Below the pieces are notes generated by a model, which worked only from the letters and a program-made list of their open reading frames with translations, was not told where the DNA came from and searched no databases. Made by a program: the position numbers and the translations under genes. From UHGV virus genome UHGV-0202386: DNA of 15,272 bases. One strand, 5' to 3'. Positions 131 to 15,133 of the stretch are shown one piece after another (position 1 is the stretch's first letter; each line of letters starts with the position of its first letter). The stretch is from a virus.

Positions 131-240
131 TGTTCTTTGCTGTTTCATAATGTGCCACGTTGTTCGTTATGTTTTTGATTTTTAAACGCATTGCAATTTT
201 TCTTGTTCCAGCTTGTTCCACGTTGTACCCCCTTGTGCAA
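131..240 (+). repeat. Array of about 8 TGTTC/TTGTTC-like motifs with 10-bp periodicity between attL and int
   Basis: TGTTC/TGTTT/TGTGC/TGTTC begin at 131, 141, 151, 161; CTTGTTCCA at 202 and 212, CGTTGTACC at 221, CTTGTGCA at 232. Read directly from the sequence. Confidence 0.6.
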
Positions 241-245
241 TGATC

Positions 246-268
246 GGTGTAGTCACTGGTGTAGTCAT
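246..268 (+). repeat. Tandem decamer GGTGTAGTCA x2 (12-bp spacing), candidate integrase arm-type sites in attL
   Basis: GGTGTAGTCAC 246-256 and GGTGTAGTCAT 258-268. A near-identical tandem pair lies at 15045-15066. Together with TTGTTCCACGTTGT (214-227 / 15013-15026) these form an imperfect direct repeat of about 60 bp just inside both ends. Confidence 0.55.
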
Positions 269-303
269 TTTTTTGCAAAATTGGGGAGCGGGGGAGAATA
301 AAC

Positions 304-2100: not shown

Positions 2101-2216
2101 CCCATCCACTAACACAGAGATCTAACCATGAATACTGGATATACGCCCGAACAGGGGCGGGGCTTCGTTCGTCCTGGTGAAACTAAAAAGCCATGTTATC
2201 GGGTATTTTCAGGCAT

Positions 2217-2287
2217 AAAAAAAGCGGCCCCGATAAGGAACCGCCTTTCTGAACAATTAACCTGCTGCGAAAAAAATGGATCAGTGC
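2217..2287 (-). ncRNA. Candidate small RNA of about 70 nt: extended -10 promoter to intrinsic terminator, in an ORF-free gap
   Basis: Minus-strand TGaTATAAT (plus 2294-2302) gives a predicted start near 2285-2287. Terminator hairpin at 2224-2248 (AAGGCGG..CCGCUU, about 11 bp with wobbles, 5-nt loop) is followed by U7 (plus A-run 2217-2223). No ORF of 60 aa or more on either strand here except the rejected long + frame. Confidence 0.3.
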
Positions 2288-2293
2288 AGGGGA

Positions 2294-2302
2294 ATTATAT
2301 CA
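2294..2302 (-). promoter_or_regulatory. Extended -10 promoter element TGaTATAAT (minus strand), no convincing -35
   Basis: Reverse complement of plus 2294-2302 reads TGATATAAT. Read directly. Confidence 0.35.
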
Positions 2303-2340
2303 ACCGTGTGGTGAAGCGCCACTATTGCCGGATAACAGGC

Positions 2341-2369
2341 AAAACAAAGGCGACCGCAAAAGGGTCGCC
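2341..2369 (-). terminator. Intrinsic terminator of the leftward RHH operon
   Basis: Perfect 7-bp stem GGCGACC/GGTCGCC (2349-2355 / 2363-2369) with 7-nt loop. On the minus strand it is followed by TTTGTTTTG (plus 2341-2348). Lies 66 nt downstream of the stop of ORF 2436-2609. Confidence 0.55.
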
Positions 2370-2435
2370 AGTGGGAACAAGGGAAAACAAAAGCATCACC
2401 AACAATGCCACATTTGCGGCTGGTGGGCAATGTGA

Positions 2436-2609
2436 TCAGTCAGATTTGGTTCGTTCCAAGGTTTGCAACGAGAGTTTTTTCCTGCGCTCTTTAAGGAATT
2501 TCTCAAGAGCAAACGAACAAGGTGCGAATCTTTCTGATTCATGCTCTATCTTTCTGCGCCGTCTTTTCCGTGTCGGTGATAATGTTTTGGTCAATTCTTT
2601 ATCGGTCAT
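2436..2609 (-). CDS. Hypothetical small basic protein (57 aa), second gene of the leftward operon
   Basis: ORF MTDKELTKTLSPTRKRRRRKIEHESERF..., AGGG 8 nt upstream of ATG 2609. An alternative ATG at 2624 has no RBS. A perfect 7-bp hairpin (2631-2637 / 2651-2657) separates it from the upstream gene. Supported mainly by the downstream terminator; no recognisable family. Confidence 0.35.
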   Translation of the reverse strand: MTDKELTKTLSPTRKRRRRKIEHESERFAPCSFALEKFLKERRKKLSLQTLERTKSD

Positions 2610-2666
2610 TGTGTTGCCCTGCATAGCAATGCGCCGTAATACCTTACACCACGGCGCTGGTGATGG

Positions 2667-2846
2667 TTACTCCTGCTCTTTGGCCTTGCGGCGCTGGCGG
2701 CGTTTGATCTCGCCTTGCATTGACGCAATGATGAATTGTGATGTGCTTTCGCCTGATTCTTTCACTGATTCCATGGCGTTTACTATTTCGTGTGGTACAC
2801 GAGCCTTTAGAGCTTGTGATTTTGCGTTTGTTGTACCCGTTGCCAT
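2667..2846 (-). CDS. Small ribbon-helix-helix (Arc/CopG-like) DNA-binding protein, candidate repressor of the divergent early promoter
   Basis: 59-aa ORF MATGTTNAKSQALKARVPHEIVNAMESVKESGESTSQFIIASMQGEIKRRQRRKAKEQE. By eye: beta strand (KARVP), helix, helix, basic tail. RBS AGAGGA upstream of ATG 2846. Faces a promoter overlapped by direct repeats. Confidence 0.65.
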   Translation of the reverse strand: MATGTTNAKSQALKARVPHEIVNAMESVKESGESTSQFIIASMQGEIKRRQRRKAKEQE

Positions 2847-2907
2847 TTCTATTCCTCTGTTGGATTGGTGGGGGACAGTATACACAGAAAAAGCACAAAT
2901 AAAACCC

Positions 2908-2948
2908 TTGACGTGGGCCACACCTAAAGCATATAGTGGGCCACACCT
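2908..2948 (+). promoter_or_regulatory. Rightward early promoter (-35 TTGACG 2908-2913, 18-bp spacer, -10 TATAGT 2932-2937) overlapped by two 13-bp direct-repeat operators GTGGGCCACACCT
   Basis: Repeat copies at 2913-2925 and 2936-2948 (perfect 13/13, 23-bp spacing), one over the -35/spacer and one over the -10/start. Sits in the divergent region between the RHH gene and the rightward ORF cluster. Confidence 0.5.
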
Positions 2949-2974
2949 TGAGATTGTCAAGGTGCATAAATGCA

Positions 2975-3009
2975 AAGCCCCGCAAGTGTCGTTACCACTC
3001 GCAGGGCTT
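2975..3009. other. Strong stem-loop in the 5' leader of the rightward operon; on the minus strand it reads as hairpin plus UUUGCAUUUAU
   Basis: AAGCCCCGCAAGTG (2975-2988) pairs with CACTCGCAGGGCTT (2996-3009) at 12 of 14 positions, 7-nt loop. No T-run on plus; T-rich tail on minus (plus 2961-2974). Confidence 0.5.
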
Positions 3010-3045
3010 CTAACCACCAACGATAGAAAGTGTATCGAGGTAGCT

Positions 3046-3252
3046 ATGAGAAATTATACCAGACACCCGCAAGGGCGGGACTCGTACAACCTGAATAAAT
3101 ACATCTGGCGTTTTATCGCCCTGAGCACGGCACAACCGCGCGTGATTACCATTGAGGCCACCAGCGAACAGGAAGCGCGTCAGCAATCTCCTGATGGCTG
3201 CGTGATGGTATTCGCTGCCCGTATTCGTCAGGGGGTACGCCATGTGCAATAA
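3046..3252 (+). CDS. Hypothetical protein (68 aa), first gene of the rightward early operon
   Basis: ATG 3046 preceded by GAGGT (3037-3041). Translation MRNYTRHPQGRDSYNLNKYIWRFIALSTAQPRVITIEATSEQEARQQSPDGCVMVFAARIRQGV. A vague resemblance to small Icd/Ash-like satellite proteins is my impression only. Confidence 0.6.
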   Translation: MRNYTRHPQGRDSYNLNKYIWRFIALSTAQPRVITIEATSEQEARQQSPDGCVMVFAARIRQGVRHVQ

Positions 3253-3938: not shown

Positions 3939-4238
3939 ATGAAACTTAAATATTCTGGCTTAACTGCCAGTGGCAACACTCACCCTAAATTTACGCGCGG
4001 CGATATTTACCGCGACCAGTACGGCGGCACGGTAATGATTAAGGGCGTGGAAGAACGGCGCGTAACCTACCGCCGTGAAGGTTACGAATATGATTGCGTG
4101 ATGCCTGTTTATCAGTTCCGGCGTGATTTTTCTCTGGTACAGACCGCGCCGCATAACGTGTCCACCAGCAACGCCAGGGCACGGGCAAACATCCAGAAGC
4201 TGAAAACCATGATTAACGGATTCAGGGGTAAAAAATGA
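3939..4238 (+). CDS. Hypothetical protein (99 aa), possibly DUF4222-like
   Basis: Motif YRDQYGGTVMIKGVEERRVTYRREGYEYDCVMPVYQFRRDF reminds me of DUF4222 proteins of enterobacterial prophages (memory only). Stop overlaps the primase start. Confidence 0.5.
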   Translation: MKLKYSGLTASGNTHPKFTRGDIYRDQYGGTVMIKGVEERRVTYRREGYEYDCVMPVYQFRRDFSLVQTAPHNVSTSNARARANIQKLKTMINGFRGKK

Positions 4239-6049
4239 AACTGGCACCGAACGTAAAACAGCAGTCACGCGGCATAAAACACAAAGAAACAGAAGTCATT
4301 ATTTTTGCGGGTAGTGATGCCTGGTCACACGCAAAACAATGGCAGGAACATGACGCGCGTATGGCCGGAGATAATGAGCCTCCTGTGTGGCTTGGGGAGC
4401 AGCAGTTATCCGAACTGGATAAGCTGCAAATTGTGCCGGAAGGCAGAAAATCCGTGCGCATATTCAGGGCCGGATATCTTGCGCCAGTAATGATAAAGGC
4501 GATTGGTCAGAAGCTGGCGGCGGCAGGCGTACAGGATGCAAATTTTTATCCTGAGGGTATGCACGGTCAGGAGGTGCAGAACTGGCGCGAATATCTGGCC
4601 CGTGAGCGCCAGAATCTTTCTGATGGTCTGGTGATTCAGCTTCCTGTTAAGAAAAAAACAGAAGACAGCGCCGCACCACTGGCGCTTAACCAGATGGGAG
4701 CAAGCCAGCGCGGCGAAGTTCTCCTGGCACATTATGGCGGTGAACTGGCGATTCATGCCGACTCTGACACTGTTCACCATTACAACGGCGTTGTATGGGA
4801 GCCGATTCAGGATAAAGAGTTACAGCGTGCTATGGCGCAGATTTTCATTGATGCGGAGATCAGCTATTCGCAGAACGCCATTAAATCGGCGGTCGATACC
4901 ATGAAGTTAAGTTTGCCTGTAATGGGGAATACAGCCCGTAACCTGATTGGATTCAGTAACGGGGTATTTGATACCAGAACAGGTAATTTTCGGGAGCATA
5001 ACAAAAACGACTGGTTGTTAATTGCCAGTGAATTACCTTTCAGCCCACCAGCAGAGGGGGAAACGCTGGCAACACATGCGCCGAATTTCTGGAAGTGGTT
5101 ACGCTGCTCGGTGGCAGAGAATGACCGCAAGACGGATCGCGTGCTGGCTGCATTATTCATGGTGCTGGCGAACCGGTACGACTGGCAGTTATTCATTGAG
5201 GTAACAGGTCCAGGGGGAAGTGGTAAAAGCGTGATGGCGGAGATTTGCACTATGCTGGCGGGTAAGGCCAACACAGTATCGGCAAGCATGAAGGCGCTGG
5301 AAGATGCAAGGGAACGCGCGTTAGTGGTTGGCTTTTCGCTGATTATCATGCCGGATATGACCCGCTACGCTGGTGATGGCGCAGGAATTAAGGCCATTAC
5401 AGGCGGTGACAAGGTGGCAATCGACCCGAAGCATAAAGCCCCCTACTCAACACGCATTCAGGCGGTCGTGCTGGCGGTGAACAATAACGCCATGTCATTC
5501 AGTGACCGCAGCGGGGGGATCTCACGTCGTCGGGTGATATTCAATTTTTCGGAGGTTGTACCGGAGAACGAGCGCGACCCCATGCTGGCAGAAAAAATAG
5601 AAGGAGAGCTGGCGGTTGTGATTCGCCATCTGCTTACTCGTTTTTCTGACCAGGACGAAGCTAAACGCCTGCTGTATGAGCAGCAGAAATCAGAAGAAGC
5701 TCTGGTGATAAAACGCGAGGGCGATTCGCTGGTGGACTTCTGTGGCTATCTCATGTCGTCGGTAATGTGTGATGGTCTGTTAGTGGGTAATGCCGAAATT
5801 ATTCCGTTCAGTCCGCGCAGGTATCTTTATCACGCCTATCTGGCATATATGAGGGCACACGGATTCGGTAAACCTGTAACACTGACGCGCTTCGGTAAAG
5901 ATATGCCGGGGGCAATGGCGGAATATGGCAGGGAGTATATAAAACGGAAAACGAAGCACGGTTTGCGTTCAAATGTGACACTGACAGAGGATTCAGAAGA
6001 CTGGATGCCATCATGTGCATCGGTCACAAATGACGACAGCAAAAATTAA
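4235..6049 (+). CDS. Replication initiator: P4-alpha-like primase / SF3 helicase (Walker A GPGGSGKS)
   Basis: 604-aa ORF. Walker A in VTGPGGSGKSVMAE, Walker B-like LIIMPDM, sensor AVVLAVNNN. Followed directly by TGTTCACC iterons, as for P4 alpha and its ori. Confidence 0.8.
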   Translation: MKLAPNVKQQSRGIKHKETEVIIFAGSDAWSHAKQWQEHDARMAGDNEPPVWLGEQQLSELDKLQIVPEGRKSVRIFRAGYLAPVMIKAIGQKLAAAGVQDANFYPEGMHGQEVQNWREYLARERQNLSDGLVIQLPVKKKTEDSAAPLALNQMGASQRGEVLLAHYGGELAIHADSDTVHHYNGVVWEPIQDKELQRAMAQIFIDAEISYSQNAIKSAVDTMKLSLPVMGNTARNLIGFSNGVFDTRTGNFREHNKNDWLLIASELPFSPPAEGETLATHAPNFWKWLRCSVAENDRKTDRVLAALFMVLANRYDWQLFIEVTGPGGSGKSVMAEICTMLAGKANTVSASMKALEDARERALVVGFSLIIMPDMTRYAGDGAGIKAITGGDKVAIDPKHKAPYSTRIQAVVLAVNNNAMSFSDRSGGISRRRVIFNFSEVVPENERDPMLAEKIEGELAVVIRHLLTRFSDQDEAKRLLYEQQKSEEALVIKREGDSLVDFCGYLMSSVMCDGLLVGNAEIIPFSPRRYLYHAYLAYMRAHGFGKPVTLTRFGKDMPGAMAEYGREYIKRKTKHGLRSNVTLTEDSEDWMPSCASVTNDDSKN

Positions 6050-6062
6050 ACTTATGGAATAA

Positions 6063-6293
6063 CTGTTCACCACTGTTCACCCTGTTATAAATATCTTTTA
6101 TATCAGTACATTATAGGGTGAACAGTTATTTGTGAACTGTTCACCAAACTATTCACTGTTCACCTTTTTGATTATTTATTGAGCTTTAAGGGTGAACAGT
6201 GGTGAACAGTTGGTGAATAGTTTTTGTGAAACTGTTCACCCCTTAACGTTATGAATAAAAAGGGAAAATCTCAAAAGGTGAACAGGTGAAGGG
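6063..6293. repeat. Origin of replication: about 11 copies of the 9-mer CTGTTCACC (P4 type-I iteron TGTTCACC) in both orientations
   Basis: Plus-orientation copies at 6063, 6073, 6137, 6156, 6232; reverse-orientation GGTGAACAG at 6117, 6191, 6201, 6277, with variants at 6212 and 6285. AT-rich spacers. Lies immediately downstream of the primase. Confidence 0.8.
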
Positions 6294-6336: not shown

Positions 6337-6582
6337 GTGACAACGCAGCACGCAAAAAAACCACAATCTCACGCCCTTGATTTGACAGAACACTGGCTGA
6401 GGGTGGCGATAAAAATCATCGACCGCAACGCGGGAGAAGGGTACGCAAAAGCACATCCCGAACTGGTAAGCGCATTCATGACCACGGCAGCGGCAAACTT
6501 TGCCACACTGACAGAACGGGAGATTGCCGAAGCGGAACAGGTGACAACCATCAACGTTAAAACCGGAGAGCAGACAGCATGA
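6337..6582 (+). CDS. Hypothetical protein (81 aa), GTG start
   Basis: GAGG at 6325-6328, 8 nt before GTG 6337. Stop overlaps the ssb start (ATGA). Unknown family. Confidence 0.5.
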   Translation: MTTQHAKKPQSHALDLTEHWLRVAIKIIDRNAGEGYAKAHPELVSAFMTTAAANFATLTEREIAEAEQVTTINVKTGEQTA

Positions 6583-7004
6583 CAGCACAGATAGCGGCTT
6601 ACGGGCGGCTGGTGGCTGACCCGCAGTTAAAGACCACCAGCAAAGGGACACAAATGGCGATGGCGAGTATGGCGGTTCCCCTGCCGTGCAGCCAGGCAGA
6701 TGACGGAACGGCGACGATGTGGTTATCTGTCCTGGCGTTTGGCAGACAGGCCGACGCACTGGCAAAACACCACAAAGGCGAACTGGTGAGCGTGGCGGGT
6801 AACATGCAGGTGAGCCAGTGGACAGGCCAGAACGGGGAAACGCGGCAGGGCTGGCAGGTTATTGCAGACAGCGTAATCAGTGCGCGAACGGCGCGACCGG
6901 GCGGCAAAAAAGGTCAACAGGGCCAGGCCACTGACGCACTGAACAGGGCAAAACAACAGACAAGCCAGCACGATGACCCGTACGGGGATAACATACCGTT
7001 TTAA
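6579..7004 (+). CDS. ssb: Single-stranded DNA-binding protein (short SSB with conserved C-terminal ..D-N-IPF tip)
   Basis: OB-fold pattern (W..V.AFG..A..L.K...KG..V.V.G......W....G..R) and C-terminus DDPYGDNIPF resembling the SSB acidic tip DDDIPF. GGAGAG RBS. Confidence 0.8.
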   Translation: MTAQIAAYGRLVADPQLKTTSKGTQMAMASMAVPLPCSQADDGTATMWLSVLAFGRQADALAKHHKGELVSVAGNMQVSQWTGQNGETRQGWQVIADSVISARTARPGGKKGQQGQATDALNRAKQQTSQHDDPYGDNIPF

Positions 7005-7040
7005 TTCACAACAGCGAACAGAGTAATTACAGGGGAAGGC

Positions 7041-7571
7041 ATGACAACGCTGACCATTAACCGGAAGCCGAAAGGCATTTACGGCACGCCGCAGAAAACG
7101 ACGCAGGCGGCGCAAGAGCAGGATAAAACCACATCGGTGCATAAAGTGATACCCGGCAATCAGAACGCACAGCAGAAGCCCACAGGGGCGACACCGTGGC
7201 AGCATATGACCAAAAGGCAGCGCAAAAACCGCCGACGCGTTAACCGCCTCACTGAGATGTGGCCTGACTTATTCAGCCATAAAGCACCGAAGCCGCTTAA
7301 GGTGGGGATATTCGACGACCTGATGCAGGATATCGCCGTCAGGGGGCTGGCATTCGGGTCGGGGGTATTACGTGCGACGCTGGCATCCTATGCGCAGTCT
7401 CCGCGCTATTACCGCGCCCTGATAGCTGGTGGCGCACGTTACGACCTGAAGGGCCAGCCATGTGGGGAAGTGACACCACAGGAACAGCAGGAGGCAGAAA
7501 CACGGCTGATGGTGCTGAATGAGAAGCACAAGCGCCAGCGCCGGGCAGCAAAGGGGGATACATGCCAGTGA
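7041..7571 (+). CDS. ProQ/FinO-domain RNA-binding protein (FinO-like RNA chaperone)
   Basis: PKPLKVGIFDDLMQDIAVRG...LRATLASYAQSPRYYRALIAGGARYDLKGQPCGEVTPQEQQEA aligns by eye to the ProQ/FinO core (PLKIGIFQDL...[35 protein letters not shown]). Lys/Gln-rich N-terminal extension. RBS AGGGGAAGG. Confidence 0.8.
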   Translation: MTTLTINRKPKGIYGTPQKTTQAAQEQDKTTSVHKVIPGNQNAQQKPTGATPWQHMTKRQRKNRRRVNRLTEMWPDLFSHKAPKPLKVGIFDDLMQDIAVRGLAFGSGVLRATLASYAQSPRYYRALIAGGARYDLKGQPCGEVTPQEQQEAETRLMVLNEKHKRQRRAAKGDTCQ

Positions 7572-7810
7572 CATTTGAAGAAGTTCAGCAACATAAAAAG
7601 CTTCATGGTTTTGATGATCTGGAAACCACGACAGCAAAAAAATATCGTCGGTTGCTTTCTTCCGATGCGTTATTTTTTGTGGATCATCATGATTTTCTGC
7701 GTAGCTCACTGACCGGGGAAATTTTCGCAACCAACCGTGAGCAGGTGGAAGCGATGATCGAATATTTGTGGAAAATAAGACGCAGAATGCGGGAGCCAGT
7801 GAAACAATAA
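7562..7810 (+). CDS. Hypothetical protein (82 aa), last gene of the early/replication operon
   Basis: ATG 7562 overlaps the upstream stop; AGGGGGA RBS. Followed by a strong terminator. Confidence 0.5.
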   Translation: MPVTFEEVQQHKKLHGFDDLETTTAKKYRRLLSSDALFFVDHHDFLRSSLTGEIFATNREQVEAMIEYLWKIRRRMREPVKQ

Positions 7811-7820
7811 AGCGATAAAG

Positions 7821-7847
7821 GCCCGGATTTTTTCCGGGTCTTTTTTC
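7821..7847 (+). terminator. Rho-independent terminator ending the early/replication operon
   Basis: GCCCGGA-TTTTT-TCCGGGTC hairpin (7821-7840) followed by TTTTTT (7841-7847). Confidence 0.8.
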
Positions 7848-7864
7848 AGGTTTTGTAAATTATT

Positions 7865-7890
7865 TGTTCGTGGTTGTTCCAGGTTGTTCG
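7865..7890 (+). repeat. Three TTGTTC motifs exactly 10 bp apart, upstream of the capsid operon
   Basis: TTGTTC at 7865, 7875, 7885 (TTGTTCGTGG / TTGTTCCAGG / TTGTTCGGTG). Same motif family as the arrays at 131-240, 1555-1620 and 15001-15030. Confidence 0.6.
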
Positions 7891-7980
7891 GTGATTCTGG
7901 TTGATGTTTACATACTGATTTTTATGTATATGTTGGCGTGTGGCACTCAGACGTGAGCCGCCACAATGCCGCCTGATCCC

Positions 7981-8013
7981 CTGCGCGATGCCGGGTTGAT
8001 CTGCGAGATGCCG
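7981..8013 (+). promoter_or_regulatory. Pair of 13-bp direct repeats CTGCG(C/A)GATGCCG 20 bp apart, candidate activator sites of the late (capsid) promoter
   Basis: Copies at 7981-7993 and 8001-8013, 12 of 13 identical, 70-100 bp upstream of the capsid start. No good sigma-70 -35/-10 nearby, which fits an activator-dependent promoter. Confidence 0.35.
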
Positions 8014-8083
8014 AGAGTGTCGGGCGGCGCTCCCCCCGTGTTGGTTTCACGTCCTGAATCTTAACCAATGCGAGAAAACCTTC

Positions 8084-9229
8084 ATGAAGAAATTAATCGA
8101 ACTCCGCCAGCAAAAAACCGCCCTGAAAAACCAGATGCGATCCCTGCTGGAAAAAGCCGACAGTGAAAACCGCAGTCTAACCGATGACGAAGGCAAACAG
8201 TTTGATGAACTGCGTGCAAAAGCCGATTCCCTCGACACAGAAATTTCCCGCCTCGAGTCTGTGGCTGATGAAGAACGTAACCAGCCTGGTGTTCCCGTCG
8301 AAGATAAAATCACCAAAAATGAGCTACGCTCTTACATTCTGACCGGGGAAACCCGCAACCTGTCCGGCAGTGTTCCGGCTGATGGTGGTTATACGGTTAT
8401 CCCGGAACTGAACAGAGAAATTATGCGTCAGCTTTCTGATGAGTCGGTGATGCGTAAAATCTGTACTGTTAAAACCATTCACAGTAATGAATTTAAGCAA
8501 CTGGTTTCTGCCGGGGGTGCGGTCGTGGGACACGGCGAAGAAGGTGCGGCACGTAACCAGACGGCAACCCCAAAACTGAATGAAGTCAGTATCCGCCTGT
8601 ATCCGATCTACGCTTACCCGAAAACCACTCAGGAAATTATCGATTTTTCCGAAGTCGATATTATGGGCTGGTTATCTTCTGAAATTGGCGACACTTTCGT
8701 TGATACCGAAGAAACGGATCTGGTTTCCGGTGATGGCGAGAAAAAAGCCAAAGGTTTCCTGACTTTCCCGCGCGCTACGGATAATGACAAAACCCGTCCT
8801 TTCGGTACGCTCCAGACGAAAAAAGTGACTGGCAGTCTCAGCGCCGATATGCTGATTGACCTGAAATTTACGCTGCGCAATAAGTACCGCAAAAAAGCTG
8901 TATGGGTGATGAACTCAAATACAGCCGCCTCCGCACAAAAACTGAAAAATGCCACTGGTGATTACATCTGGCGCGATCGTTTACAGGCTGGTGATCCTGA
9001 TTCTCTGCTGGGGCTTCCGGTTGAATATCTGGAATTTATGCCGGACGGTGTGATTGCAGTCGGTGACTTTAAGCGCGGTTATTTCATCGTTGACCATAAA
9101 ACCGGTACGCGTACCCGTCCGGATTTCAGCGAGCCTGGATTCATTAACATCTATACCCAGAAATATCTGGGCGGTGGTGTGGTGGATTCGAACGCCATCA
9201 AGATTCTGGAAATTCAGGCTGGCAAGTAA
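8084..9229 (+). CDS. HK97-family major capsid protein with N-terminal coiled-coil delta/scaffold domain
   Basis: 381 aa. N-terminal about 70 aa is charged coiled-coil (ELRQQKTALKNQMRSLLEKADSENRSL..). C-terminal motifs LLGLPVEYLEFMP..GDFKRGYFIVDHKTG...YLGGGVVDSNAIKILE are typical of Phage_capsid (HK97 fold). Confidence 0.85.
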   Translation: MKKLIELRQQKTALKNQMRSLLEKADSENRSLTDDEGKQFDELRAKADSLDTEISRLESVADEERNQPGVPVEDKITKNELRSYILTGETRNLSGSVPADGGYTVIPELNREIMRQLSDESVMRKICTVKTIHSNEFKQLVSAGGAVVGHGEEGAARNQTATPKLNEVSIRLYPIYAYPKTTQEIIDFSEVDIMGWLSSEIGDTFVDTEETDLVSGDGEKKAKGFLTFPRATDNDKTRPFGTLQTKKVTGSLSADMLIDLKFTLRNKYRKKAVWVMNSNTAASAQKLKNATGDYIWRDRLQAGDPDSLLGLPVEYLEFMPDGVIAVGDFKRGYFIVDHKTGTRTRPDFSEPGFINIYTQKYLGGGVVDSNAIKILEIQAGK

Positions 9230-14799: not shown

Positions 14800-15000
14800 G
14801 AAAAATTGCATTCAGGAGGTGGGATCGAAATCCCTACAACCCATTGCTTATGGGACTGCCCGCCCCGTCAAATTTTTACACCCGCGAAAAATACTTCAAG
14901 CTGGTGGGCATGATGCCGATATGGGGATCCCCATGTCGACATTAACGCCCCTCATGAATTGGCGTGCTTCCCCCTGGAAAGATGACCCGCCTGTATATTT

Positions 15001-15066
15001 CTTGTGTCTATTTGTTCCACGTTGTTTCATACAGTGCACCGAACGGTGTAGTTACTGGTGTAGTCA
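15001..15066 (+). repeat. Right-arm copy of the terminal repeat: 3 phased TTGT motifs, TTGTTCCACGTTGT, and tandem GGTGTAGTTA/GGTGTAGTCA
   Basis: TTGT at 15002, 15012, 15022. TTGTTCCACGTTGT 15013-15026 is identical to 214-227. GGTGTAGTTACTGGTGTAGTCAT 15045-15067 versus left GGTGTAGTCACTGGTGTAGTCAT 246-268. Confidence 0.6.
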
Positions 15067-15133
15067 TTTTGCGATTTTTAAAGTTATCTAAGATATTATT
15101 TGTCATTTAAATTCAATTGGTTATGAGTACTTG

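Follow-up and report, generated by a model that had tools for sequence, protein, structure and literature searches.

The window (UHGV virus genome UHGV-0202386, the whole stretch of 15,272 nt that was analysed) contains a phage satellite, bounded by a direct repeat at its attachment sites, and within it a gene for a FinO-domain protein, here called proQ (Table 1). The left end of the element is of the PICI type, with genes for a Phage_integrase protein with an Arm DNA-binding domain, a Phage_AlpA protein and a D5_N/DUF5906/Pox_D5 protein (Pfam matches and RefSeq annotation). The gene order is int, alpA and primase, followed by capsid-protease-portal-connector and then HNH-terS-terL, and tail and lysis genes are absent. 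Capsid-forming PICIs (cf-PICIs) are defined as elements of 10–15 kb that have their own capsid-protease-portal-connector genes and HNH-terS-terL, without tail and lysis genes (10.1101/2022.09.08.507074). By these published sequence criteria the element is a cf-PICI of E. coli. The published cf-PICI descriptions that we searched make no mention of a ProQ/FinO gene. The best sigma-70-like promoter match in the window, a match to the consensus only, is presumed to drive the icd-to-primase operon, and terminator scans found no convincing plus-strand terminator from this promoter region up to the terminator of the proQ cluster. The sole Rfam matches over the whole window, to plant miRNAs at positions 6090–6270, are artefacts of the inverted iterons of the presumed origin.

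Table 1. Features of the satellite element, with positions in the window and the basis of each assignment
Feature	Position	Strand	Basis and remarks
Attachment-site direct repeat	left 196..271, right 14995-15070	.	copies 14,799 bp apart, giving an element of ~14.8 kb
Leftward-operon terminators	2373-2337, 2248-2213	-	canonical hairpin and U-tail
Presumed icd-to-primase promoter	2908..2937	+	TTGACG-18-TATAGT, 10/12 consensus matches; would give a ~100-nt leader
Candidate ~78-nt cis-antisense RNA, RepX-like	2967..3046	-	fold, covariation, strand asymmetry, RepX similarity
Parts of the candidate RNA	stem-loop I 3046-3011; stem-loop II (terminator) 3010-2974; U-rich tail 2973-2967	-	fold
Extended -10, TGgTATAAT	3053..3061	-	6 nt upstream of the modelled RNA 5′ end; overlaps icd codons 3-6
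icd-like gene	3046..3252	+	RefSeq 'host cell division inhibitor Icd-like protein'; first ORF of the icd-to-primase operon; predicted antisense target
D5/P4-type primase-helicase (PICI pri-rep gene)	4235..6049	+	Pfam D5_N, DUF5906, Pox_D5; TIGR01613
Presumed replication origin	6058..6286	.	the 10-mer ACTGTTCACC / GGTGAACAGT occurs at least 9 times, in either orientation, in the interval from the primase gene to orf81
orf81 (phrog_1231)	6337..6582	+	stop overlaps ssb start by 4 nt
ssb, single-strand DNA-binding protein	6579..7004	+	Pfam SSB 59.4 bits, TIGR00621 62.7 bits; directly upstream of proQ
Optional proQ cassette, exact 548 bp	7004..7551	+	blastn of 6501-8100 against L137, L164, L133 and L154; element architectures
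proQ, FinO-domain protein gene	7041..7571	+	176-aa ORF; Pfam PF04352; RefSeq 'ProQ/FINO family protein' at 99.6%-identical loci
N-terminal 57 aa, Thr/Gln/Lys-rich, predicted disordered	7041..7211	+	pLDDT, composition, family alignment
FinO domain, aa 64-168	7230..7544	+	Pfam envelope; includes K87, G89, R111, Y123, R133
orf82 (phrog_1957), 82 aa	7562..7810	+	start overlaps proQ stop by 10 nt; translationally coupled
Intrinsic terminator of the cluster	7817..7849	+	11-bp stem, then U run; fold -19 kcal/mol

The profile matches, the predicted fold and the key residues of the proQ product agree with one another and support its identification as a FinO-domain RNA-binding protein. The ORF matched Pfam PF04352 (ProQ/FinO) with 84.9 bits (E 4.8e-24; the cut-off is 27), in an alignment that spans profile positions 5–108 of 109. 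The PDB sequences matched by phmmer at E<1e-5 were FinO-domain proteins only (the N-terminal domain of ProQ, FinO, NMB1681, Lpp1663 and RocC). In the AlphaFold2 model, pLDDT is 86–96 across residues 60–170 and <50 at residues 1–50, and the best 26 Foldseek matches of this model in the PDB were all FinO-domain structures (NMB1681, FinO, RocC and Lpp1663), with target-normalised TM values of 0.61–0.83, the next match having E>2. As modelled, the protein adopts the mostly α-helical FinO fold. The pocket for the 3′-terminal nucleotide, which is composed of a Tyr, an Arg and a β-turn Gly, is present: Y123 aligns with Y70 of ProQ and Y87 of RocC, R133 with R80 and R97, and G89 with G37 and G52, respectively. 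These three residues are nearly invariant across 23 family members of 52–91% identity, and the Arg of the N-cap helix, R111 (R58 in ProQ and R75 in RocC), is kept in 19 of the 23. The roles of the pocket residues and of the N-cap Arg have been described for RocC and ProQ (PMC9674577). In RocC a Y87F variant misfolded, and a Y123F variant of the satellite protein may do likewise. The residues that precede R111 are G-S-G-V in place of the S-K-S/T-K of the N-cap motif, so the phosphate-contacting Lys of RocC and ProQ is absent. The FinO core that had been recognised in the first-pass annotation is thus borne out by the sequence and structure matches and by the pocket residues, and the Pfam score lies far above the family cut-off. 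The 'Lys/Gln-rich tail' described there is roughly right, in that the N-terminal region is rich in Gln and Lys, but it is also rich in Thr (T11, Q8 and K6 among its 57 residues) and is followed by an Arg/Lys-rich helix, KRQRKNRRRVNRL, at residues 58–73. Both the motif LTINRKPKGIY and Trp53 are conserved within this N-terminal region in the family alignment. At the other end, the protein stops ∼8 residues past the C-terminal helix of the FinO domain.

The same protein scored 66.1 bits with the NCBIfam model of FinO proper (NF010317; the cut-off is 136) and 59.7 bits with the ProQ equivalog model (NF003434; the cut-off is 127), the latter over profile positions 5–117 of 205 only. Judged by these profiles, it is an orthologue of neither FinO nor ProQ. 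It is a member of a separate chromosomal clade that is almost confined to enterobacterial PICI satellites. A RefSeq name already exists for this ProQ/FINO family protein, and no functional study of it was found in the literature.

proQ lies in a tightly packed cluster, orf81-ssb-proQ-orf82, in which start and stop codons overlap and which follows the primase gene and the iteron origin. In cf-PICIs, orf82 always directly precedes the capsid gene. The cluster ends at an intrinsic terminator that was missed by one terminator scan, found by a second and confirmed by folding; our own terminator scan was too permissive, and only hairpins that recur at homologous positions were used. The comparison with sister elements showed that proQ is an optional cassette. 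In sister cf-PICIs the ssb stop is joined directly to the orf82 start, or a PerC gene occupies the slot of proQ, and no non-coding sequence gained along with the cassette was found in this comparison. Among related satellites selected by Icd, proQ is present in ∼30% (14–15 of 48). The first-pass annotation had placed the gene on a phage satellite, in its replication operon and between ssb and the operon terminator. The satellite is supported by the cf-PICI criteria, and the gene does sit directly after ssb in a packed cluster downstream of the primase gene, but orf82 intervenes before the terminator, and proQ is an optional cassette rather than a core replication gene. A terminator-like hairpin on the minus strand within proQ (7233–7208) was considered as the end of an antisense RNA and rejected, as it falls within the conserved KRQRKNRR codons and has no promoter-like site upstream.

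The presence of canonical hairpin-plus-U-tail terminators on the element raises the possibility that the targets of the protein are the terminator of its own operon or those of the leftward operon, and that its binding would shield the mRNAs from 3′ exonucleases without any antisense pairing. Such protection of mRNA 3′ ends is known for ProQ (PMC12086684). However, sister elements without proQ have the cluster terminator after orf82 too, so that nothing ties it specifically to the protein, and the hairpin of the cluster only modestly beats shuffled sequences (z −2.4). We consider this explanation improbable.

Homologous loci were collected from IMG/VR scans and exact-protein look-ups. The element itself is carried at 99% identity by E. 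coli strains such as E500002, JP538, FDAARGOS_1249 and ATCC 43886. proQ is found in ∼5% of complete E. coli genomes (279 of 5426), often in pathogenic lineages and next to PerC-type virulence regulators. In int-alpA-icd-DUF4222-primase elements, which include both capsid-forming and classical PICIs, its place is invariably after the primase gene and, if the element has them, after orf81/ssb; among cf-PICIs it is carried by some only. The gene is optional, and some family members are truncated or fragmentary, as would be expected if proQ were a decaying or functionless passenger. We give this explanation hardly any weight, as a full-length ORF is kept in at least 261 clusters at 90% identity from Escherichia, Shigella, Salmonella and Citrobacter, the functional residues stay invariant at the identities given above, and a single protein variant is indexed in 4005 assembly blocks. 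PerC is a regulator family known to act on host virulence genes. That the cassette slot elsewhere holds PerC suggests accessory cargo rather than core control, a point that is taken up below together with the RNA. In the sampled loci, proQ is nearly always linked to an icd-primase module that carries the candidate antisense RNA; one homologue lies in an unrelated island (L017 and L018), where the antisense RNA model has no match.

At the head of the icd-to-primase operon, the minus strand contains a conserved, previously undescribed sequence that is predicted to encode an antisense RNA, on the same element as the FinO-domain protein. The RNA would be complementary to the icd-like mRNA across the 5′ UTR and the RBS, up to and including the first base of its AUG. 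Its predicted minimum free energy is −41.6 kcal/mol (z −6.8), and the same structure was predicted independently by RNAalifold. The fold is specific to one strand: the mean for the minus strand is −36.6 kcal/mol versus −21.9 kcal/mol for the complement, and all 29 variants examined fold more stably as the minus strand, since invariant G·U pairs turn into A·C mismatches on the other strand. Compensatory changes are observed in six pairs of stem II, with a covariation that was reached by none of 500 shuffles, and slid controls collapse. The loop of stem I is hypervariable (15 variants) and flanked by invariant stems, which fits the expectation for a loop by which an antisense RNA recognises its target. 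The base of stem II extends into A-U pairs with the tail, i.e. it shows the pattern of ProQ ligands. The extended −10 upstream of the RNA is kept as TGgTAT(G/A)AT in 19 of the 23 distinct upstream sequences that 114 loci yielded; part of this conservation could reflect the protein, as the motif overlaps the icd coding sequence. Wherever the region is present, the RNA model (R1) finds a match, invariably on the strand of the candidate RNA, and in canonical loci the match ends at the icd start codon. A weak isrJ match (14.1 bits) is attributed to chance. No correlation was found between the antisense RNA variants and the presence of proQ. The RNA is core to the satellites and the protein is present in ∼30% of them, which suggests that the RNA would work without the protein, possibly via host ProQ.

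The candidate RNA resembles RepX, the countertranscript of the IncQ plasmid R1162/RSF1010. The Rfam RepX model (RF00043) aligned with the antisense site over its full length at sub-threshold scores, 24.6 bits in the window and 16.5 bits in a second locus (L042), against a gathering threshold of 55. In the reverse direction, the PICI-derived RNA model found RepX in pRSF1010 of strain ST4/74, which served as the RSF1010 comparison sequence, over its full length and at the right place and strand, with 25.4 bits (the next best match had 9.9). A pairwise alignment of the two RNAs contains 51 identical positions in 85 columns (z 4.9), and the 12-mer GUUGGUGGUUAG is common to both. The predicted layout is also that of RepX: two stem-loops and a 3′ tail in a countertranscript of ∼75 nt, which lies across the RBS and the initiation codon of a gene in a replication operon. 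For RepX this gene is repA, with its RBS and AUG, and FinO binds the RNA with an effect on copy number (PMC8136791).

Taken together, the ∼78-nt antisense RNA is, on sequence grounds, the most plausible concrete candidate for a partner of the FinO-domain protein. We propose that this clade-specific chaperone, whose gene sits at the distal end of the replication gene cluster, acts on the antisense RNA of its own satellite and thereby tightens repression of the replication operon, a reading that we consider plausible but short of probable. Against it count the presence of the protein in only ∼30% of the Icd-selected satellites, to which the RNA is core, the lack of correlation between RNA variants and proQ, the PerC genes found elsewhere in the slot, the A-U base of stem II, the sub-threshold RepX scores and the overlap of the extended −10 with coding sequence. 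Like other FinO domains, the protein would clamp the base of an intrinsic-terminator hairpin, with the Tyr/Arg pocket burying the 3′-OH end of the pyrimidine tail and the basic N-terminal helix and tail aiding RNA-RNA pairing. Its likeliest ligand would be the antisense RNA, which is complementary to the icd-to-primase operon from the leader through the RBS to the start codon. We infer that this RNA is expressed and bound by the protein, which would stabilise it and speed its pairing, with tighter repression of the replication operon as the outcome. Should the long transcript of this operon also give rise to the protein, a negative feedback loop would result that restrains satellite replication, comparable to FinO/FinP, FinO/RepX and FopA/Inc on plasmids.

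As cargo, the protein would instead act mainly on transcripts of the host or the helper phage, either as a ProQ-like global hairpin binder or as a competitor of host ProQ, and would alter host physiology or helper expression. The optional cassette in a variable slot common to PerC-family regulators, the lack of accompanying non-coding sequence in the cassette and the homologue in an unrelated island without an RNA model match all favour this possibility. FinO domains, moreover, read structure and not sequence, and minimal FinO-domain proteins can bind globally, as described in PMC7272453 and PMC9674577. Nevertheless, according to the FinO/ProQ review, those FinO-domain proteins of mobile elements that have been studied so far have mobile-element antisense RNAs as their main targets (FinP and RepX for FinO, and Inc for FopA), and the near-constant linkage of proQ to the icd-primase module with its antisense RNA also points away from cargo, which we regard as possible but rather unlikely.

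FinO-domain proteins constitute one of the three major bacterial RNA chaperone families. To our knowledge, those from mobile elements studied so far are plasmid-borne, and we know of descriptions of Gram-negative PICI regulation only at the level of transcription (AlpA). Control of the satellite would gain a post-transcriptional layer from a FinO-domain protein of its own together with a RepX-like countertranscript over the leader of the replication operon. If the proposed action of the protein on the antisense RNA is correct, a FinO/FinP-style antisense circuit would operate inside a phage satellite and set its induction threshold or copy number, and the hypervariable loop of stem I might set the specificity of cross-immunity between co-resident satellites. 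A RepX-like RNA on satellites would also link the replication control of satellites and IncQ plasmids evolutionarily, and a compact natural pair of 176 aa and ∼78 nt would serve the study of ligand choice by FinO domains. It is conceivable, if doubtful, that enterobacterial satellites in general, both classical and capsid-forming PICIs, control the icd-to-primase operon by a RepX-related countertranscript, and that about a third of them add their own FinO-domain chaperone for that RNA.

When the predicted pair is compared with known systems, several features are shared with FinO and FinP. As in FinO, which is likewise encoded by a mobile element, the FinO domain is preceded by a basic, flexible N-terminal region, and the identity to plasmid FinO is ∼35% over residues 74–168; however, the two proteins are non-orthologous, and the satellite is a chromosomally integrated element whereas FinO resides on a conjugative plasmid. 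In both systems the chaperone gene lies far from the antisense RNA, which in FinP is ∼79 nt long, has two stem-loops and spans the RBS of the gene that heads a key operon (traJ mRNA). Below the terminator stem the candidate RNA has paired A-U, in contrast to FinP, which has a purine-purine mismatch, as does RepX (PMC12001967). With RepX (75 nt) the candidate RNA shares its size, the two-stem-loop-plus-tail layout and the position at the head of replication genes. It differs in that its predicted target is the icd-like ORF that heads the primase operon, whereas RepX targets repA inside an operon, and in that the chaperone gene is found on the same satellite element, whereas RepX is bound by FinO from a co-resident plasmid.

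FopA (YafB of pCol1B9), which acts with Inc RNA, and PcnR (IncI2) are similar to the satellite protein in being small FinO-domain proteins with basic N-terminal regions of their own. Each is encoded by the element whose replication it restrains through an antisense RNA, a function that is predicted for the satellite. A tblastn search at E≤1e-9 returned only 122 plasmid records, 15 of them from Escherichia; given how common IncI1 plasmids are, these few matches suggest that FopA is probably no closer to the satellite protein than FinO. With chromosomal ProQ of E. coli and Salmonella the protein shares the domain and the conserved binding residues, and the terminator of the candidate RNA follows the ligand pattern of ProQ; unlike ProQ, it is a single domain of 176 aa without a linker and C-terminal Tudor-like domain, and its gene is mobile and optional. 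Satellite P4 and phage P1 use small RNAs (CI in P4; c4, located upstream of icd, in P1) for repression at an operon leader, and the operon in each case begins with a kil/icd-type gene and continues into replication functions. Rfam searches gave no match to the C4 family. CI and c4 arise by processing of the sense transcript and work through short complementary boxes, whereas the candidate RNA of the satellite is a predicted cis-antisense transcript.

The FinO domain that the first-pass annotation had recognised in the product of the FinO-domain gene was borne out by the search proposed there against the Pfam ProQ/FinO family (PF04352), which gave 84.9 bits (E = 4.8e-24) over aa 64-168, nearly the full profile. 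In agreement with this, phmmer against all PDB chains returned FinO-domain proteins exclusively at E < 1e-5 (best matches ProQ NTD, 7.9e-12, and FinO, 7e-11; also NMB1681, Lpp1663 and RocC). An AlphaFold2 model built from a 23-member family alignment had pLDDT values of 86-96 over aa 60-170, with aa 1-50 disordered, and when it was compared with the PDB by Foldseek, the top 26 matches were FinO-domain structures, the 27th having E > 2. In the RocC-RNA structure, the 3′-nucleotide pocket and N-cap residues are Y87, R97, G52 and R75, corresponding to Y70, R80, G37 and R58 of ProQ (PMC9674577). All four are present in the satellite protein, where they align with Y123, R133, G89 and R111; Y123, R133 and G89 are near-invariant in the family (members 52-91% identity), and R111 is found in 19 of 23 members. 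Beside this conservation, loss of function of the FinO-domain gene is a lesser alternative to the mechanism proposed below. By every defining feature that can be assessed from sequence, the satellite protein belongs to the ProQ/FinO domain family. It is an orthologue of neither FinO nor ProQ, since its scores with the respective NCBIfam models (66 and 60 bits) fall far below the family cut-offs (136 and 127) and it lacks a Tudor-like C-terminal domain; it stands for a PICI-specific clade.

The N-terminal 57 aa, earlier described as a Lys/Gln-rich tail, are Thr/Gln/Lys-rich (T11, Q8, K6): Gln and Lys are indeed abundant and a strongly basic helix follows (KRQRKNRRRVNRL), but Thr outnumbers both. 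The extreme N-terminus, M-T-x-LTINRKPKGIY (window 7041-7085, aa 1-15), is conserved family-wide, as is a Trp at aa 53, directly ahead of the basic helix, while the remaining tail is variable and disordered. The N-terminal Trp36 of FinO is important in strand exchange, and Trp53 may be its functional equivalent. RefSeq already names the gene 'ProQ/FINO family protein'. No ProQ/FinO gene is mentioned in the cf-PICI literature examined, and our literature search found no functional study of the RefSeq-annotated, PICI-specific clade; a 2026 survey of Enterobacter satellites includes a ProQ/FinO-like chaperone, not studied further, among the accessory genes of one PICI (PMC13612085).

By its sequence, the element in the window fits the published definition of a capsid-forming phage-inducible chromosomal island (cf-PICI; 10.1101/2022.09.08.507074).

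Features of the cf-PICI and of its icd leader region, with window coordinates
Feature	Position (nt)	Strand	Remarks
Direct repeats	196-271 and 14995-15070		76 nt, 78% identical, 14,799 bp apart
Integrase gene	304-1533
alpA	1872-2075
Short leftward unit			between alpA and icd-like gene
Promoter-like site TTGACG-18-TATAGT	2908-2937		best in window
Candidate antisense RNA	2967-3061	minus	range includes promoter element; RNA starts 6 nt downstream of extended -10
Extended -10 element TGgTATAAT	3061-3053	minus	perfect match
icd-like gene	3046-3252		followed by small ORFs, DUF4222
D5/P4-type primase gene	4235-6049
Iteron field	6058-6286	both	at least 9 copies of the 10-mer ACTGTTCACC / GGTGAACAGT; between primase gene and orf81
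orf81, ssb, FinO-domain gene, orf82			in this order, 3′ of iteron field
FinO-domain gene	7041-7571	+	ORF, 176 aa
orf82 (phrog_1957, 82 aa)	7562-7810		start overlaps FinO-domain gene stop by 10 nt
Intrinsic terminator	7817-7849		3′ of orf82
Capsid, protease, portal, connector, HNH, terS, terL			in this order after terminator

The direct repeats, with a near-exact 3′ core of GGTGTAGT(C/T)ACTGGTGTAGTCATTTT, are likely attL and attR and delimit the element at about 14.8 kb; the element is also found in E. coli E500002, where it interrupts yifB, adjoining ilvG. The first-pass placement of the FinO-domain gene between ssb and the operon terminator holds on the ssb side, but the gene does not adjoin the terminator, as orf82 intervenes. 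The iteron field is presumably the satellite replication origin; Rfam plant-miRNA matches within it were spurious, produced by the iteron repeats. The leftward unit consists of a YlcI/YnfO-family gene and a small ORF, is convergent with alpA and is closed by two successive intrinsic terminators on the minus strand (2213-2248 and 2337-2373), the former of which (AAAGGCGG...CCGCTTTTTTT) has a flanking A-tract and could act in both directions. A 374-aa ORF (2128-3252, +) that covers the entire divergent regulatory region is most likely spurious; RefSeq labels the counterpart in one genome a partial pseudogene, and consistent annotation is limited to the last 68 codons of the ORF, which are the icd-like gene.

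The FinO-domain gene was found in 279 of 5426 complete E. coli genomes (≥80% nucleotide identity), chromosomal in all and in up to five copies per genome, and its homologues form at least 261 clusters from Escherichia, Shigella, Salmonella and Citrobacter. Across ~100 loci, the gene order is nearly constant (int, alpA, icd-like gene, DUF4222, primase, orf81, ssb, ProQ), with a primase of the D5 or DUF927 type and with orf81 and ssb each optional; cf-PICIs have orf82 directly 3′ of ProQ, and classical PICIs have PerC there. Close relatives outside the PICI context are essentially absent; phage genomes gave matches in only 15 of 50,697 records, all at ≤41% identity, and plasmid matches were FinO at ~35% identity and a few small-plasmid proteins at 38-43%. 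One homologue (P0056, 67% identity; loci L017 and L018) lies in another island type with AlpA, YagK/YfjJ-like, DUF3987 and DUF1187 genes, which is without the primase-ssb module and in which the antisense RNA model described below finds no match. The ProQ gene is optional, being present in 14-15 of 48 satellites chosen solely by their icd-like gene, with sufficient sequence. Comparison with sister cf-PICIs placed the ProQ cassette at 7004-7551, with boundaries exact to within a few bases, and revealed no extra non-coding sequence gained with it. Of these sisters, L137 and L164 have nothing in the ssb-orf82 slot, and L133 and L154 have PerC. The slot is a site of variable cargo: apart from being empty, it can contain PerC, ProQ or, among classical PICIs, both genes.

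The RNA ligands of FinO domains are terminator hairpins that carry a 3′ tail, and one lesser rival explanation is that the satellite protein protects the 3′ ends of the element's own mRNAs. The members from mobile elements studied so far pair with cis-antisense RNAs, and the element was therefore searched for such an RNA. The candidate, with a predicted length of 78-81 nt, is complementary to the 5′UTR and Shine-Dalgarno sequence of the icd-like gene and to the A of its AUG, and it folds into two stem-loops, the second a 15-bp GC-rich hairpin, followed by a U-rich tail (UUUGCAUUU). Its MFE is -41.6 kcal/mol (z -6.8 versus shuffles), and the minus strand outfolds its complement in 29/29 distinct variants (mean -36.6 versus -21.9 kcal/mol), because invariant G.U pairs turn into A.C mismatches on the complement. 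Compensatory changes occur at six pairs of stem II, e.g. A-U to C-G (11 sequences) and G-C to C-G (8); 96.8% of alignment cells are paired, compared with 35-53% in slid controls, and the observed covariation was reached by none of 500 shuffles. RNAalifold independently yielded the same structure. Stem I is invariant and its 7-nt loop occurs in 15 variants, a hypervariability that would be expected of an antisense recognition loop. Of 23 distinct upstream sequences, 19 retain the extended -10. The covariance model built for the RNA matches all loci having the region, on the same strand each time and, in canonical loci, ending at the icd start codon; all related PICIs examined have the candidate RNA. 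Fold, covariation, strand asymmetry and conservation thus support it as a candidate for a real, strand-specific RNA. The icd leader is presumed to start from the promoter-like site, directly downstream of which lies an inverted repeat (CACCTTGAgattgTCAAGGTG, 2945-2965), possibly an operator to which AlpA or a different regulator would bind where the icd-to-primase transcript begins; more CACCT/AGGTG motifs surround the -10, and equivalent repeats recur at other loci.

No Rfam family matched the candidate RNA at its own threshold. When the leader alone was scanned, the best match was RF00043 (R1162-like plasmid antisense RNA), full-length and sub-threshold (24.6 bits in the window and, for another variant, 16.5 bits; gathering score 55). 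The RF00043 consensus contains AAAGGAGG-N7-AUGGCUAC, a Shine-Dalgarno sequence and then AUGGCUAC, so it is written in the repA sense; in pRSF1010 of Salmonella ST4/74, its reverse complement is antisense across the repA start. The model appears to sit on the strand opposite RepX, and the strand of any match should be read accordingly, so the '+' match in the window is the sense leader and the equivalent of RepX is the minus-strand candidate RNA. Reciprocally, a search of pRSF1010 with the PICI-derived model recovers RepX over its full length, in the correct place and strand, with 25.4 bits (runner-up in the same 3-kb stretch, 9.9 bits). In a rough empirical control on 2.35 Mb of satellite loci, one listed match lay away from the expected icd-leader position (locus L117, 3181-3229, minus strand, 49 nt, 24.4 bits), which could represent either another hairpin RNA of related type or a remnant. 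The candidate RNA and RepX have 51 identical positions in 85 columns (z 4.9 versus shuffles) and the 12-mer GUUGGUGGUUAG in common at the junction of stems I and II. RepX, a countertranscript of 75 nt, covers the RBS and AUG of repA-repC and, with FinP, is one of two high-affinity in vivo ligands of FinO, whose loss raises the pRSF1010 copy number (PMC8136791). The candidate RNA, which scores below the threshold for Rfam membership, is likened to RepX and FinP in its putative mode of action; 'RepX-like countertranscript' is the most suitable description, and the RNA may be distantly homologous to the RepX of IncQ plasmids.

We propose that the FinO-domain protein would bind stem-loop II and the tail of the RepX-like RNA, protecting it and speeding its pairing with the icd leader, and that faster pairing would tighten post-transcriptional repression of the icd-to-primase operon. 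Start and stop codons overlap within the orf81-ssb-proQ-orf82 cluster and no convincing terminator was found between it and the primase operon, so the protein may come from the transcript that it helps repress, which would place satellite replication under negative feedback. The candidate RNA makes the question of the protein's partner directly testable. Counting against this mechanism, the RNA is core and the protein optional, no correlation was found between RNA variants and presence of the protein, and the cassette slot is shared with PerC; the main rival explanation takes the protein for cargo whose targets are host or helper RNAs. Also counting against the proposed pairing of protein and RepX-like RNA, the base of stem II extends into A-U pairs with the tail, which is the pattern of ProQ ligands, whereas FinP and RepX have a purine-purine mismatch there (PMC12001967), so host ProQ could serve the candidate RNA.

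The ProQ variant of a very common classical-PICI-like element (loci L006-L011, about 11,560-18,900) is indexed in 4005 assembly blocks. Downstream of its ProQ gene lie orf138, a PerC-like gene and then three large ORFs (~840, 600-690 and 820-920 aa), which have no Pfam matches save an SLT lytic transglycosylase domain in one of L010 and are reminiscent of podovirus internal/ejection proteins.
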